A stretch of DNA of 60,401 bases, the filler included. It is 4 parts of 4 records of this genome, joined end to end, with 100 filler letters (N's around TTAATTAATTAA, not from the genome) between each part and the next. Parts side by side here need not be neighbours in the genome. Positions count along the whole stretch, not along the records: positions 18,228 to 47,386 come from SRR20825019_489; 3 more parts are not named here. One strand, written 5' to 3'. Shown here piece after piece: positions 18,128 to 55,040 of this stretch. The notes beneath the pieces were generated by a model. It had not been told where the DNA came from, ran no database searches, and saw nothing but the letters and a program-made list of their open reading frames with translations. The stretch's first letter is position 1, and each line of letters starts with the position of its first letter. Made by a program: the position numbers and the translations under genes.

Positions 18128-18227
18128 NNNNNNNNNNNNNNNNNNNNNNNNNNNNNNNNNNNNNNNNNNNNTTAATTAATTAANNNNNNNNNNNNNNNNN
18201 NNNNNNNNNNNNNNNNNNNNNNNNNNN
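18128..18227. other. Artificial contig linker
   Basis: 44 N + TTAATTAATTAA (stops in six frames) + 44 N; abrupt composition change. Confidence 0.98.
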
Positions 18228-35704: not shown

Positions 35705-35791
35705 ACCGGACCCGGACCGGACCAGAATCGGACCAGAATCGGACAGGACTTAGACACTCACTTTCCCATCCTCTCCAGGACGTGAAAGCAC

Positions 35792-35820
35792 AGGGCGGGA
35801 TTTTCCCGCCCTTTTTTTTT
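35792..35820 (+). terminator. psp operon terminator
   Basis: AGGGCGGGA-TTT-TCCCGCCCT followed by a T-run. Confidence 0.9.
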
Positions 35821-35895
35821 GAATGTTGTTCGTTGCTTGAAGAGTATTGCCCCACTAGAATGCATCGGTATTCAACAGGGCGAGTGCATGAGTGT

Positions 35896-36450
35896 ATGAT
35901 CCAAGCTATTCAGGATAATAAGATTTTCCGCACTGTCTATGCGGTATGGGATGAACTAAGGGACGACGGCCAGGTTATGCCGACCCGCGACGGTTTTAAC
36001 CCCATGGCACTTGGGGCGATGCTACCCAACATTGTGCTGGTTGAGCGGGTAGACCGCGCGCACTATGAGTACCGCGTCATGGGCACGGCAGTAAGCGCCC
36101 GTCAGCAGGAAAACCCTGTTGGCTTCAACATGCTTGAATATTTTGTGCCCGAGGTACGTGAGTTTCTGGCTGACTGGTTCGAAGCCATGACCTTCTATGG
36201 GTGTGGCACCATCACTAGCATGGATCTAGTCTATAATAACGAGGCTGACAGGGGTGCCCAAGTGTTGGGTTTACCGCTTCGCGGGAAGGGCGGAGAAGGC
36301 CACTATTATCTGTTTGGCAACCACGCCTGGGGCGAAAAACATCCTGACGAGCTTGGCGGGCTCATCAGCGCTGGCGCAAATCATCTGGAATGTATCGGGG
36401 TGGACATTGGTAAAGGCTTGCCAGACCTCCCTGTTCAGCCAGTACGTTAG
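35896..36450 (+). CDS. Stand-alone PAS-domain protein (PAS_5-like)
   Basis: W..LR....MPTR..F.P......LPNIVLVE, YRVMGT, LPL. Confidence 0.8.
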   Translation: MIQAIQDNKIFRTVYAVWDELRDDGQVMPTRDGFNPMALGAMLPNIVLVERVDRAHYEYRVMGTAVSARQQENPVGFNMLEYFVPEVREFLADWFEAMTFYGCGTITSMDLVYNNEADRGAQVLGLPLRGKGGEGHYYLFGNHAWGEKHPDELGGLISAGANHLECIGVDIGKGLPDLPVQPVR

Positions 36451-36586
36451 CTGACGATTGACCGGATATCCTTGAATAGTGGGAGGCGAGCGAAGGTCTC
36501 TGCGCTCCTGTTTATTGCGGCTTCTGCTTTAAGTTTTCCTTAAATCACCTCTGATTATGATACTCTGGGGCCTGATAGGAGATGCC

Positions 36587-37141
36587 ATGAAGCCTTTGAG
36601 CGGAAAATTTATTCCCTTCTTCGATGTTTGGGTCGCTTTTCGGGCGCCCGGAGAAGTGGTGCCGCTCTGGAAGAATGTCAGGCCGATGAAGTTTGGCGAC
36701 CTTCTTGCCAATGTCACCATGGTGAAGAAATACGGTCCGCGTGATTATCGGTACCGACTGCTGGGTTCCGAGGTTAACCTCAAGATGGGTGACGATCCCG
36801 TCGGCGAAGATTTTTTCAAATATCTGCCAAAGCACCTTCACGACTATGCCAACACATGGTTGGATAATATTATCGCCCAGCCTTGCGCCGCCTGGCATAA
36901 AATGAGCCTCGAGTTCGCGCGCGATAGCTCTCACCATTATGAAAGCCTTAATCTGCCGATCAGGGGTGGGGATGGTAAAATCGATACCTTCCTTTATTAC
37001 AACAAGGGATGGCAGCCGCAGGCAGGTGAGAATCTTGGCCCGCTTGTCAGCTCTGGCGCACAGTTTTTTACCATTGTCCCCGTAGATATAGGCGCCGGTA
37101 TACCGGACGCGGTGCCCCAGCTAAAATCAGCCCACTTATAG
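36587..37141 (+). CDS. Stand-alone PAS-domain protein (PAS_5-like), paralog
   Basis: AGGAG RBS; YRYRLLGSEV, LNLPI; C-terminus similar to the upstream gene (VDIG.G.PD). Confidence 0.8.
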   Translation: MKPLSGKFIPFFDVWVAFRAPGEVVPLWKNVRPMKFGDLLANVTMVKKYGPRDYRYRLLGSEVNLKMGDDPVGEDFFKYLPKHLHDYANTWLDNIIAQPCAAWHKMSLEFARDSSHHYESLNLPIRGGDGKIDTFLYYNKGWQPQAGENLGPLVSSGAQFFTIVPVDIGAGIPDAVPQLKSAHL

Positions 37142-42347: not shown

Positions 42348-42585
42348 TATTTCCTCTCCCCAGAGTACTAGATACGCGCGCTGACGACTGTGAACGCCAG
42401 CCACATAAGTTGCAGGCTTTTTAGCCTGTTTCATTATGAAGGCCACATGGTTCTGCAGCCTATAAAAACGGCGCCATCATAGGCAGATGACGCGGCGATA
42501 ACCAGCCTGAAATTGGTTTGGAGATGGTTGGGGGCAACGTTGCTTTCGCCAGCCCAGTTAAAACAGCGCTAAAACAGCCTCTAAG

Positions 42586-43398
42586 TTATTGAGATGTATC
42601 CATAACCGCGCAATAGTCGCCCTGGCTTTTCACCTGGTTGCACAGGGTTTGCGCGCCAGATTTTTCTTCAAGCCGTACGCCAAGCCGCAGCGCAAAACCG
42701 CCAACGTTCACTTCCCACTGGTCAATGATACCGCTGAGTGCCGGGTATTTTTTCTCAAGAATACTTTTTGACGACACGGCTTGTTCATAGGACCGATAAG
42801 ACGCCAGATGCGCAAACCAGCGCCCAAGGGGTGAGCTGCCGCTTGGGCGGCTCACGTCGCGCCGTGGGCCTGTGTTGCCTGCGGCAGGGGTCGTGCGGGC
42901 AACGTCCGCCGGTTTTTCCGTGATAGAGGGCAAGCTGTGATCAAGCCTGACAGGCTGCATACGCGACACGTCCATGGCTTGAAGCTCGCTGGCGATAATG
43001 GCGAGGCGGCGGCCAGCTTCAGACCCGACCGCGCCGTCAGCCATCACTTCATTTCCGCACCGCAGGAAAACCCTATCGCGTGAACCGGAACTCATGAGAG
43101 AGGCATATATACGCCGCGCCGCAACCGGCTTGCCGCTCTGCTCGAGCGCGAGGCCGGTATAAAATCTGTCTGCCGGTGATGATAAAGGTTCGCTGATCAA
43201 GATGCGTGCTGCGTCAATGGCGCGCCCTTCACACATGGCTTGTTCAACCGCGTTGCTGGCGCGCTGCGTGGTGACACCTTTTGGCTGTACGCTGCGTGAC
43301 ATACCGCCTGTATCACAGGCCGCCAGAAGAAGCAGTGCGGCGGCGCCGCTTACCAGTTTAAACCCAGCTCGGTGCGAGAAATCAGTTAGGCAGCGCAT
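42586..43398 (-). CDS. Lipoprotein with a C-terminal SPOR-like domain
   Basis: Lipobox LAAC, helical region, Pro-rich linker, HLASYRS...LC..VK..G..C SPOR pattern. Confidence 0.75.
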   Translation of the reverse strand: MRCLTDFSHRAGFKLVSGAAALLLLAACDTGGMSRSVQPKGVTTQRASNAVEQAMCEGRAIDAARILISEPLSSPADRFYTGLALEQSGKPVAARRIYASLMSSGSRDRVFLRCGNEVMADGAVGSEAGRRLAIIASELQAMDVSRMQPVRLDHSLPSITEKPADVARTTPAAGNTGPRRDVSRPSGSSPLGRWFAHLASYRSYEQAVSSKSILEKKYPALSGIIDQWEVNVGGFALRLGVRLEEKSGAQTLCNQVKSQGDYCAVMDTSQ

Positions 43399-44122
43399 CT
43401 AGGATCATCCGATTGTTGCGCGGCTGCAGGGGTCGCGCGTTTTCCCCCATGATGCCGTTCATGACGGCGATCTGTTCTTTGGAGAACTCTACCGGTTCCT
43501 TAAAGATGTACCAGTTTACCCCCTCTGTGCAGGGTGGGTGGGTTTCTGACCCCATATACCGGTAATAGGTGCCACTGTGGGGCATGAAGTCGCGGGCGTT
43601 GATCTTGACGTCTGGCCTGCGGGATGTCTGGTCGGGTTCAATCGGCAGGTGCGGCCACAGCTCTTCCGCCGCTATGTTTGCCGAGCCTTCTTTCACCAGT
43701 ACGGCAACACGGGCCTGGGTGCCGTCTGCCGCGCGGTGATCGAAATGAATTTCCATCGGGAAGCTCTGGGCCATCACCCGGTGTTCACCCGGTGTATGGA
43801 AATGAAAGCCGGTCAGCTCAAAGGTTTTATCACCCACACGCAGCATGCTGCCGGGTGCATAATCAAACCGTATGGTGCGCCGGTCATTTTTCATATCAAC
43901 GGGCGAGACGTTATAGTTGGTCTCAAGCCGGTTGAGGAGGACGGCTTCCGTGCCTTCCATGATGATAGGGGACTGCATGGAGCCATTGGCACAAACACTG
44001 GAAATAGAGCCCCAGCTGTTAGGCCCGTTAGAGCCGGAATAGCTCCAGTTATCCTGCGCAGAGGCTGACGCGGCAAGTGCAGTTGCCATGAAAAGTGATC
44101 CAACCGGTCCGGTCCAGTTCAT
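43382..44122 (-). CDS. Periplasmic alpha-carbonic anhydrase-fold protein with an atypical pocket
   Basis: WSYSG, QSP, FHFHTPGEH, EIH, GSxTxPPC.EGV.W; signal peptide. Confidence 0.9.
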   Translation of the reverse strand: MNWTGPVGSLFMATALAASASAQDNWSYSGSNGPNSWGSISSVCANGSMQSPIIMEGTEAVLLNRLETNYNVSPVDMKNDRRTIRFDYAPGSMLRVGDKTFELTGFHFHTPGEHRVMAQSFPMEIHFDHRAADGTQARVAVLVKEGSANIAAEELWPHLPIEPDQTSRRPDVKINARDFMPHSGTYYRYMGSETHPPCTEGVNWYIFKEPVEFSKEQIAVMNGIMGENARPLQPRNNRMILDALPN

Positions 44123-44224: not shown

Positions 44225-45664
44225 TTAAAAGCCCGTTTGTTGGGATAAAAGTGTCGCCAACTCTTTGAGGCGGTTGTTAATTTCCCGTTCTTGTAGATTA
44301 GCAAAGCCAAAAAGCAAACCATGTTGCGGCGGACATGCCCGATATGTTTCGGAAAGCGGCGAGGCTCCAATACCTGCGCGCCCCGCAATCAGCGAAAGCT
44401 TAACATCGCTCAGGTGGTTCAGCTTTGAGGTAGCGACAACATGCAGCCCGGTGTCTGACTGCTCAAAGGTAAAATAGGGCGAAAGCCACTCTCTCGCCGC
44501 ATCCATAAACAGGCCCAGTCGGGTTTTATGCACACCGCGCAGGCGACGGATATGGCGGGCGAAATGCCCTTCCTCAATGAAGCGGGTCAGCATCAGCTGG
44601 TTGCTGATGCTGGGGAAGCTGTCCACGGCCGCGCGGTGCTTGAGCACCCGGTCTACCAGCCCCAAAGGCAATACCAGATACCCGAGCCGAAGTGCCAGAA
44701 ACAGTGATTTGGAGAAGCTGCCGCCATAGATAACCCGTTCCCCGCCATCAATGCCCTGAAGCGAGTTGATCGGGCGTCCGGCATAGCGAAATTCGCTGTC
44801 GTAATCATCTTCCAGAATGAAGCAGTTTTCCCGTTGCGCCCACTCGAGAATTTCCAGCCTGCGTTTGAGCGGCATGGTCTGGCCCAGCGGATACTGTCGT
44901 GACGGGCTTGTAACCATAAGGCCTGCGGGCACGCCCGCCATTTTGGGCGGCACAGCGCCGTCTTTATCCACGCGGGTGTAAACGATAGGGTTGGAGAGCG
45001 TTTTGGCGGCAGTGGTCATGCCGGGATAGCCGGGGTCTTCAAGCACAATAGCGCGGTCACCGTCTACGACACTTTCCATCACCAATCGCACGCCTTGCTG
45101 TAGGCCGGAGGTGATGACGATCTGGTCCGGGCTTGCTGTCAAGCCGCGCGCTGCTTCCAGATAGGCCGATATGGTGCGCCTGAGCGGCAGATACCCTGCA
45201 GGGTCATTATAAAGCAGTTCGACCGCATCGGCATGACGCCAGACGCTGCCTGCTATCCGCGCCCAGATATCGGTGGGGAACTGATCAAGCGCGGGCATGC
45301 CGGAAAGGGGTCTCGCGGCTTTTTTCTCCCGCACGTTATGGCTTGTGCGGGTGCCGTCCGGCACAGCGGTCATGGTCAGGCTGGTATCGGGCAGGTCTGC
45401 GCTCACATAGGTGCCTGCGCCCTGGCGTGTTTCAAGATACCCTTCGGCCACCAGATGCTCATAAGCGGCCAGAACCGTGTTGCGGGAGATGGCCAGCCGG
45501 TCTGCCAACGCGCGGCTCGCTGGCAGGCGGTGGCCCGCGGGCAAGCTGCCGTTCAAAATCGCATGCCGCAGCATGGCCTGAAGCTGCTCATTGAGCGGTG
45601 CTTCACTGCTGGCGTCCAGCCCGGGCGCAAAAAGGGTTTCGAACATACCGTCCAAAATTGGCAC
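44225..45664 (-). CDS. MocR/PdxR-family GntR regulator (PLP aminotransferase domain)
   Basis: RLPASRALA..L.ISRNTV HTH, EDDYDSEFRY, SFSK. Confidence 0.95.
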   Translation of the reverse strand: MPILDGMFETLFAPGLDASSEAPLNEQLQAMLRHAILNGSLPAGHRLPASRALADRLAISRNTVLAAYEHLVAEGYLETRQGAGTYVSADLPDTSLTMTAVPDGTRTSHNVREKKAARPLSGMPALDQFPTDIWARIAGSVWRHADAVELLYNDPAGYLPLRRTISAYLEAARGLTASPDQIVITSGLQQGVRLVMESVVDGDRAIVLEDPGYPGMTTAAKTLSNPIVYTRVDKDGAVPPKMAGVPAGLMVTSPSRQYPLGQTMPLKRRLEILEWAQRENCFILEDDYDSEFRYAGRPINSLQGIDGGERVIYGGSFSKSLFLALRLGYLVLPLGLVDRVLKHRAAVDSFPSISNQLMLTRFIEEGHFARHIRRLRGVHKTRLGLFMDAAREWLSPYFTFEQSDTGLHVVATSKLNHLSDVKLSLIAGRAGIGASPLSETYRACPPQHGLLFGFANLQEREINNRLKELATLLSQQTGF

Positions 45665-45703
45665 CTTTAACTTAACGTAATTGGCTCTTTCTAAGGGATC
45701 AAT
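45656..45703. promoter_or_regulatory. Candidate MocR operator
   Basis: AATTGGC direct repeats at 45656 and 45679 plus an imperfect inverted copy GATCAAT at 45697. Confidence 0.55.
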
Positions 45704-45754
45704 ATAAACGCAAACTTTAGGGGTGAAAAGCGTTCAGTTCTCAGAGGTGCCACC

Positions 45755-46408
45755 ATGAGTGATTTTGCTAAAAACGACCGGAACCGGGTACGGCGGGGCC
45801 ACAAGCGTGCAGTGTATGATGAAGAGACGGTTTACCGCATTCTCGACAGTCATTTCCTGTGCCATGTGGCGTTTGAGATGGACGGCCAGCCGCATATCCT
45901 GCCAACCAGCTATTGGCGCGAGGACAACCGGCTTTACTGGCACGGCTCAAGCGCCAGCCGGATGATCAAACATCTTTCAAGCGGTGCGCCGGCCAGCGTG
46001 TGTGTGACCCAGCTTGACGGGCTTGTGCTCGCGCGCTCAGCCTTCAATACCAGCGCCAATTACCGCTCGGTGGTGTGTTTTGGTGTGCCGGAACTGGTGA
46101 CAGACGACGCGGAGTTTGACCGCCAGATGGAACTGTTTTTTGACCAGATCGCGCCTGCACGCTGGGGCCAGCTTCGGCCCATGACCGCGCAGGAGCGCAA
46201 GGCCACAGGCCTTCTGGTGATGAAGATTGAGGACGCGAGCGCCAAGGTGCGCGATGGCGGCCCCGGTGACGCTGAGGAAGCTGACTGGCCCATATGGGCC
46301 GGGCATGTGGATATCCGCACCGTAACAGGCGCGGCCCACACCGCACCTGAGGGAGAAAAAGCCCCGCTCAATCACAAGGTTTTACCCGCTTATCACTGGG
46401 CGCGATGA
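45755..46408 (+). CDS. Pyridoxamine 5'-phosphate oxidase-like flavin-binding protein
   Basis: RA.YD, HGSSASRM, DGLVLARSAF..SANYRSVV. Confidence 0.9.
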   Translation: MSDFAKNDRNRVRRGHKRAVYDEETVYRILDSHFLCHVAFEMDGQPHILPTSYWREDNRLYWHGSSASRMIKHLSSGAPASVCVTQLDGLVLARSAFNTSANYRSVVCFGVPELVTDDAEFDRQMELFFDQIAPARWGQLRPMTAQERKATGLLVMKIEDASAKVRDGGPGDAEEADWPIWAGHVDIRTVTGAAHTAPEGEKAPLNHKVLPAYHWAR

Positions 46409-46418
46409 GGAGACGAAG

Positions 46419-46727
46419 ATGCTGCAACTAAGGCCAAGTTGCGAACATTGTGACAAAGCGCTGCCACCGAACAGCACGGAGGCGATGATCTGTTCCTATG
46501 AATGTACTTTTTGTGCGGATTGCGCTGAACACGTGCTCGGTCATGTCTGCCCAAATTGCGGGGGCAATTTTGTTGCCCGGCCGATCCGTCCGTCCACTGA
46601 GTGGCGACCGGGGGTGTCGCTCAGCCACCAACCGGCGCGTAAAGACAAGGTCTTCAAACCTGTGAGCGTCCAGGAACAAAAAGAATTTGCGGCCCGCGTG
46701 AGTAAAACCCCACCCGGGTCACGATAA
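46419..46727 (+). CDS. DUF1272 family Cys-rich protein
   Basis: LRPSCEHCD, ICSYECTFCADC, CPNCGG. Confidence 0.9.
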   Translation: MLQLRPSCEHCDKALPPNSTEAMICSYECTFCADCAEHVLGHVCPNCGGNFVARPIRPSTEWRPGVSLSHQPARKDKVFKPVSVQEQKEFAARVSKTPPGSR

Positions 46728-47386: not shown

Positions 47387-47486
47387 NNNNNNNNNNNNNN
47401 NNNNNNNNNNNNNNNNNNNNNNNNNNNNNNTTAATTAATTAANNNNNNNNNNNNNNNNNNNNNNNNNNNNNNNNNNNNNNNNNNNN
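47387..47486. other. Artificial contig linker
   Basis: 44 N + TTAATTAATTAA + 44 N. Confidence 0.98.
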
Positions 47487-54940: not shown

Positions 54941-55040
54941 NNNNNNNNNNNNNNNNNNNNNNNNNNNNNNNNNNNNNNNNNNNNTTAATTAATTAANNNN
55001 NNNNNNNNNNNNNNNNNNNNNNNNNNNNNNNNNNNNNNNN
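54941..55040. other. Artificial contig linker
   Basis: 44 N + TTAATTAATTAA + 44 N. Confidence 0.98.

Follow-up and report, generated by a model that had tools for sequence, protein, structure and literature searches.

Gene A of this locus encodes an alpha-carbonic-anhydrase (CA)-fold protein that keeps the zinc ligands of the family and has a charged CO2 pocket, and its end overlaps gene B, which encodes a predicted lipoprotein (Table 1). The locus raises the question of whether such a protein is a zinc enzyme rebuilt for a polar substrate, as the original prediction had it, or is kept for something other than its chemistry. The window analyzed is a stretch of 60,401 nucleotides in which four contigs (GC content 0.35, 0.55, 0.59, and 0.49) are joined by N spacers at 18128-18227, 47387-47486, and 54941-55040. 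Genes A and B both lie on the 29-kb contig (window 18228-47386), the best matches of which are to Kordiimonas, with the nearest genome being 99% identical. The residue changes in gene A are not sequencing errors: the nearest genome (L001) has identical residues at the 20 scored positions, and no alternative letters occur in contigs from 3 public runs (2 studies), although two of these runs may be the source of this DNA.

Table 1. Features of the A-B locus, in window coordinates
Feature	Position	Strand	Basis
Gene A, alpha-carbonic-anhydrase-fold protein, 246 aa	43382..44122	-	profile, alignments, predicted fold
Zinc triad codons H107, H109, H126 (CA II H94/H96/H119) with E113 and E124	43745..43804	-	residue table
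D128 (V121), Q136 (L141), R138 (V143): charged swaps in CO2 pocket	43709..43741	-	residue table
N175-A176-R177-D178, core of 11-residue signature; candidate partner-binding surface	43589..43600	-	conservation comparison
E193-T194-H195 (L198E, T199, T200H)	43538..43546	-	alignments and residue table
A/B overlap; ATG of B at 43398 inside the D242-A243 codons of A	43382..43411	-	
Gene B, predicted lipoprotein, 270 aa, lipobox LAAC28	42586..43398	-	ORF call and homologue alignment
TPR-like helical domain and beta-hairpin, conserved C56/C114 (B residues 45-145)	42964..43266	-	predicted fold
SPOR domain, HLASY subtype (B residues 190-268)	42595..42831	-	homologue profile and weak fold matches
Terminator-like hairpin and T run 3' of B, ahead of SNF transporter gene	42471..42493	-	consensus match

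The product of gene A matches Pfam PF00194 (E 1.7e-30) over positions 1-251 of the 254 in the profile, and its AF2 model, with a pLDDT of 92, fits the structures of bacterial alpha-CAs with an rmsd of 1.3 A (Foldseek E 1e-27, TM 0.84-0.86). Identity to solved bacterial alpha-CAs is 34-41% in pairwise alignments. The first 22 residues read as a likely Sec signal peptide (a hydrophobic stretch and A-S-A), and AGGAGA precedes the ATG. Human CA II numbering was carried over through motifs in the alignments to solved bacterial CAs. In these alignments and the residue table, H94/H96/H119, E106, E117, T199, W209, and the C44/C198 pair are kept, and H64R, Q92G, V121D, L141Q, V143R, L198E, and T200H are changed, just as had been listed from the sequence of this copy. 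The zinc triad with Glu106, Glu117, and Thr199 is thus complete. The CO2 pocket, defined in the excerpted text of PMC7642793 as V121/V143/L198/V207/W209, reads D, R, E, V, W and is no longer hydrophobic, and the proton-shuttle set, His64 with N62/Q67/Q92, reads R, D, R, G.

In CA II, large side chains at position 143 lower catalysis 1e4-1e5-fold and L198E is mild (excerpt of PMC7642793), and T200H retains partial activity (excerpt of PMC12205326); R143 is therefore the likely disabling change in gene A. Probably paired with D121 and E198, R143 would plug the CO2 site of this copy. The partial activity that single L198E or T200H changes leave in CA II, the retention of every metal and gatekeeper residue, and the compatibility of a His119-to-Gln change with activity in the Plasmodium eta-CA (excerpt of PMC5437132) would fit a slow CA, held at the wall by the product of gene B, that buffers periplasmic pH or CO2 and whose activity matters in some lineages only. 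Such a reading has to contend with the combination, in this copy, of V143R, V121D, and the loss of H64, N62, and Q92.

The orthologues of gene A bear on both catalytic readings. The query, 119 homologues from databases, and 37 loci from genomes were aligned, 157 sequences in all; removing P0083 (a fragment) and sequences of >=97% identity thinned the alignment to 139 rows, 81 of them in the Kordiimonadaceae clade and 58 in the outgroup. The zinc triad is intact in 14/81 clade sequences versus 48/58 outgroup sequences, and a strict test for a canonical site is passed by 2/81 versus 42/58. Among the 67 clade orthologues without an intact triad, two His ligands are left in 10, one in 32, and none in 25, so that 57/81 have at most one His; His119 to Gln is the commonest change (64/81). 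Under Dollo parsimony, with no regain assumed, a tree built without the pocket columns gives about 10 independent triad losses, several deep nodes of this tree being weak. The CO2 pocket is also altered in most of the clade members that still bear the triad. This suggests an order of loss in which pocket and shuttle wear away first and the metal site later, with this copy at a middle stage. Its charged pocket is likely an intermediate stage in the release of the active site, not a new catalytic design.

The original prediction expected D121/R143/E198/H200 to mark a conserved clade linked to the SPOR gene, and this expectation did not survive the alignment: the full set is present in 2/81 clade orthologues and D121 with R143 in 7/81. 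These seven belong to an 8-member subclade that holds this copy, and it is in this subclade that one would have to look for a zinc enzyme, or a binder dependent on zinc, in which D121/R143 has shifted specificity towards a polar or anionic substrate, perhaps a fragment of the envelope. The triad, E106, E117, and T199 are unchanged throughout the 8 members, where about 3.2 changes would be expected (zinc-site omega 0; 2dL 5.9 on 2 df, a comparison that is partly circular), and D121/R143 persists through synonymous changes. Zinc binding by this copy is therefore likely. There is also a precedent in the plant protein PtCAL-3, in which the triad is kept, the pocket is altered, and the chemistry is new (excerpt of PMC10700139). 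Within the same seven sequences, however, E, Q, T, and L all occur at position 198, H, T, and M at position 200, and R and H at position 64, and the omega of the subclade CO2 pocket (0.14) is not below the 0.08-0.09 found elsewhere, a difference that is not significant. No biosynthetic genes accompany the A-B pair across the two clades in which it occurs (see below), and a re-tuned enzyme leaves unexplained why triad-less orthologues retain the partner. Because most partnered orthologues have lost zinc ligands, shared zinc chemistry cannot be why the pair is kept. The proposal of a neofunctionalised zinc enzyme thus fails for the partnered family, in which 67/81 orthologues lack the triad, and keeps a possible foothold in zinc-site selection within the small subclade, where we consider it unlikely.

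Loss of the triad was also compared with the presence of another CA class. A beta-CA was found in 32/37 family genomes, and there is no pattern of the triad being kept where a beta-CA is missing: 2/5 genomes without a beta-CA keep the triad versus 8/31 with one. Together with the 57 orthologues that keep at most one His, this speaks against a slow, wall-held CA, a reading that we regard as quite unlikely even when the canonical CAs that sister-clade copies of this module contain, and those found beside a different SPOR lipoprotein in 9/21 loci of family f46, are counted in its favor. In three near-complete genomes (G005, G012, and G028), the alpha-CA is triad-less and no beta-CA was matched; CO2 hydration there must fall to an enzyme of another class, or the enzyme was missed.

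Gene A is single-copy in 36/37 family genomes and has no stops in 38 genome matches. Its absence from G026 was put down to an assembly gap: the contig edge falls at the end of the MocR gene, and the SNF orthologue is also missing. A codon model fitted to 34 genome-derived rows (L001, L019, and L036-L038 excluded), with synonymous sites near saturation at depth, gave an omega of 0.079 for gene A as a whole and 0.108 for gene B; within A, the value was 0.082 at 24 cavity sites and 0.133 at the 16 variable face sites. The 24-site cavity set, which we take to reflect CA II anatomy, was settled after the residue table was known. No site in gene A has an omega >1 in these 34 rows, and diversifying selection on the pocket was rejected on this ground; with an omega far below 1, the pocket is not neutral either. 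A decaying gene with an incidental neighbor, to which the many altered catalytic residues and the high genus-level synteny might point, is hardly credible, being refuted by the intact single copies, by the omega of 0.079, and by the survival of the A-B pair in a changed neighborhood in the sister clade. The substitutions are also no strain-specific decay, a point on which the original prediction holds, given the same omega. From these results, we conclude that gene A is subject to neither decay nor DIVERSIFYING selection.

Site rates show where the constraint lies. The relative rate of cavity sites rises from 0.25 in the outgroup to 0.98 in the clade (p 2e-7), and that of dimer-face sites, the positions of which were mapped by eye from the motif table in the excerpt of PMC7662607, falls from 1.6 to 0.64 (p 3e-4). 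Because pocket charge varies between -1 and +3 across the orthologues (with 0 for this copy), we rejected a conserved pocket charge; the composition of the pocket is surface-like. Constraint has moved from the pocket to the dimer face, and pocket sites change as fast as the average site of the protein; given this shift and the variable charge, the pocket behaves like ordinary surface. The former pocket could instead be a ligand site with a lineage-specific ligand, be it a glycan, a muropeptide, or a molecule of the surface; a precedent is vaccinia D8, in which chondroitin sulfate is bound in the crevice (excerpt of PMC4256255). Pocket states are stable inside sub-lineages and switch between them, the L024/L025 face differs by 6 synonymous and 0 non-synonymous changes, and mean face charge is +0.98 versus +0.09, with Arg enriched. 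The lack of any site with omega >1, the spread of charges that includes 0 in this copy, and a K+R fraction of 0.15 versus 0.14 at ordinary fast sites weigh on the other side, and we judge a ligand pocket of this kind to be improbable.

The partner offers a different view of what is conserved. A lipobox-like motif is present in 34/35 B loci, with a start 14-45 codons upstream, and its Cys is invariant in 45 aligned sequences. The best fold match of the TPR-like domain is TadD (8odn_B, Z 10.1, rmsd 2.3, 80 aligned; a helical-repeat Z of this size is unspecific), and a TadD-like pilotin role was rejected, the match being weak (E 0.043). A low-confidence linker separates this domain from the SPOR domain. 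The B protein of the window itself matches no Pfam or NCBIfam model, but PF05036 (SPOR) is matched by 23/41 B homologues (best E 2.4e-6), and fold matches, although weak, point the same way (CwlC 1x60, E 0.022; RlpA 6i0n, Z 7.7, rmsd 3.0, 74 aligned; Atlas matches of 0.91 and 0.90). The SPOR lipoprotein of the original prediction is therefore supported through its homologues and these folds, not through a model match of its own, and the TPR-like domain was no part of that prediction. SPOR domains are described as having a strand-1 Gln (RlpA Q270) and a basic patch and as binding stem-less peptidoglycan (excerpt of PMC6895207). At the site equated by motif with RlpA Q270, B has His197 in 41/41 sequences where most SPORs carry Gln; R238 and R242 of B are present in 40/41, and C253/C263 are conserved. 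His instead of Gln is a common alphaproteobacterial SPOR subtype (150/189 domains in a B-seeded set).

Gene B directly follows gene A in 35/36 family loci, and its ATG lies at -17 relative to the end of A in 21/35, which bears out the 17-nt overlap noticed in this copy. The codon for R238 of A is CGG or AGG in 19/20 overlap loci versus 3/14 others, and the corresponding count at R235 of A is 0/20. This is as expected if the R238 codon supplies a ribosome-binding-like GG(A) for B, with the site kept inside A, and the synonymous-site pattern is evidence for translational coupling of A and B. Conservation of D242/A243 in A may partly reflect the overlapping start codon of B.

Since a 10-kb block around A-B is syntenic throughout Kordiimonas, a specific A-B link rests on the overlap, on a sister clade, and on genome G033. 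In the sister alphaproteobacterial clade, a B homologue follows the CA in 16/18 metagenome loci among unrelated neighbors, and the remaining 2/18 contigs end within 324 nt; these loci are partly redundant, and the B homologue shows both domains where the contig permits. Among the partnered CAs of this clade, some have a fully canonical site and others a degenerate one (ligands H-R-Q and D-H-Q). No B-like gene was found in 36 unrelated CA loci with >=1 kb downstream (0/36) or as a neighbor among 14 CA loci of the order of G379. A CA-SPOR fusion was likewise absent among 32 longer homologues, which is weak evidence. As a separate observation, 26 of these 32 (within P0311-P0337) are alpha-CAs fused to Pfam PF16747, which we take to be an adhesin E-like domain. 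These data demonstrate that the A-B pairing, as originally proposed for this copy, is real, that it is older than the pocket changes, and that it occurs in two alphaproteobacterial clades with different neighbors.

Residues of A that accompany the pairing were sought as those >=80% conserved in both linked groups (33 + 7 non-redundant sequences, the latter from the 10 of 18 sister loci that entered the comparison) and <=45% conserved in 53 unlinked CAs. The resulting 11-residue signature comprises V72, Y88, T110, L142, A151, E154, N175-D178, and R235. This copy scores 11/11 and the unlinked CAs (n = 53) have a median of 2 and a maximum of 8; three CAs of unknown context outside the linked clade score 8-9. 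Genome G033 contains a family orthologue without B (L038; G033:C1:8231-8914), and B was not found elsewhere in that genome. L038 has no zinc His, and its branch exceeds those of its relatives about threefold in length; it retains 2/11 signature residues yet 32/38 universal sites and thus provides a natural experiment on what follows when the partner is lost. The signature could also reflect simple inheritance, because all linked anhydrases fall in a single clade (support 86) and the loss case is a single genome, the long branch of which left the linked clade in one of four trees. Based on these comparisons, we propose the signature as a candidate partner-binding surface.

Alpha-CAs are present in 34 of 401 sampled alphaproteobacterial genomes. 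In the 9/21 CA loci of family f46 with a SPOR neighbor, which form one clade, a canonical CA lies directly upstream of a lipoprotein with a SPOR domain and an N-terminal domain different from that of B. The f46 CAs branch apart from the gene A group and score 0/11 on the signature. This second CA-SPOR pairing is suggestive only: with 3-6 SPOR genes per genome (the Kordiimonadaceae figure) and some 30 CA lineages in the sample, a rough estimate puts it at a few percent by chance. In three f46 loci (L136:4147-6005, L137:3992-5940, and L138:4043-5999), the CA has a twin-arginine-like leader and the N-domain of the lipoprotein is unannotated; the f46 pair is divergent from a HAMP histidine kinase-receiver gene. 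Seven further alphaproteobacterial alpha-CAs (L127, L131, L128, L139, L123, L108, and L119) have altered zinc ligands and no SPOR neighbor within 1.5 kb.

The hairpin after B would end a two-gene A-B unit before the SNF transporter gene, as judged by consensus match alone, for which 7 such sites were found versus 2.4 expected. A functional link of A-B to the SNF transporter or the MocR regulator is not favored because of this terminator-like site, because 2 loci have a further gene between B and SNF, and because the sister-clade neighbors differ. The MocR-type regulator upstream of A, which is kept in most Kordiimonas and replaced in three other genera, is divergent from a pyridoxamine-oxidase-like gene and DUF1272 (window 44225-46727). 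A link to Tad pilus genes was rejected, as the Tad/Flp genes after 47487 sit on a different contig from the Kordiimonas one. Elsewhere in the window, two stand-alone PAS_5 proteins are encoded in tandem (35782-37141), and the ORFs just before them presumably resemble pspA and pspC. One contig, guessed to derive from RNA, covers only 163 nt.

Taken together, the explanation that we find somewhat probable is that A is an exported CA-fold protein kept under strong selection with lipoprotein B, likely as a non-catalytic periplasmic partner, and that its active site is free to vary within the family. We infer the export of A, its binding to B, its dimerisation, and the tethering described here. B would be lipid-anchored and bind stem-less peptidoglycan through its SPOR domain, and its TPR-like domain would bind A via the signature surface. 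If A stays a homodimer like other bacterial alpha-CAs, and thus holds two B molecules, A2 with two B would make a tether or hub with two arms reaching from membrane to wall. Ancestrally, the pair may have positioned an active CA at the envelope, and CO2 hydration may then have become dispensable repeatedly, helped by beta-CAs. More tentatively, and with some doubt on our part, this could be a new envelope complex of Alphaproteobacteria, in which a CA dimer clamps two TPR-SPOR lipoproteins, that began as an enzyme parked at the wall or septum and became a purely structural pseudo-enzyme at least 10 times, so that canonical, half-eroded, and dead versions coexist; the f46 pairing would extend it to a general link of periplasmic CO2/pH chemistry to the site of wall remodeling.

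Among known systems, the bacterial periplasmic alpha-CAs (6eki, Persephonella 6im0, Thermovibrio 4c3t, Photobacterium 5hpj, and Neisseria 1kop) share the fold of A (rmsd 1.3 A), its cysteine pair, zinc triad, E106/T199, likely export, and conserved dimer-face positions, but in gene A the CO2 pocket and proton shuttle are replaced, 67/81 orthologues are triad-less, and there is a fixed lipoprotein partner. Gene A appears to work most like the CA-related proteins (CARPs; animal CARPs, Toxoplasma TgCA_RP, and vaccinia D8), which have the CA fold without a working site and have non-catalytic structural or binding roles. As in CARPs, the gene is intact and under purifying selection (omega 0.079), and the His119-to-Gln change, commonest in the clade, is also found in TgCA_RP and the eta-CA (excerpt of PMC5437132). 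Lost His ligands characterize 67/81 orthologues and not this copy, which has all three. Unlike CARPs, the A family is bacterial and periplasmic, its losses are repeated and ongoing, and its conserved surface is not the pocket. The plant proteins CAL-1/2/3 are also exported alpha-CAs with a mutated triad or with an intact triad and an altered pocket, but they catalyze defined alkaloid steps (excerpt of PMC10700139), and the A orthologues have no common pocket state or linked pathway genes. B resembles SPOR proteins (RlpA, DamX, FtsN, and CwlC) in its C-terminal domain, which has the SPOR fold and carries basic residues on strand 3, and its TPR-like N-terminal domain is reminiscent of TadD and other TPR lipoproteins; B differs from those SPOR proteins in having His for the glycan-binding Gln, no catalytic domain, and an anhydrase pairing. 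In the excerpt of a 2017 paper (PMC5437132), the CA-related pseudo-enzymes listed are from animals and viruses, to which the paper adds a single example from a protist, and our literature search found no report of a bacterial anhydrase paired with a SPOR protein.

The family forms a natural series in which intact enzymes grade into dead pseudo-enzymes, and there are candidates for both the partner and the binding surface. Named strains exist for several of its species (K. aestuarii, K. gwangyangensis, K. marina, and K. lacus); the orthologue of K. marina is near-canonical, that of K. lacus has the ligands HHQ, and that of K. aquimaris is triad-less. The 'carbonic anhydrase' labels on these marine alphaproteobacterial genes are mostly unsafe. 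The series makes testable both the roles of periplasmic alpha-CAs besides CO2 hydration and the transition from enzyme to scaffold.
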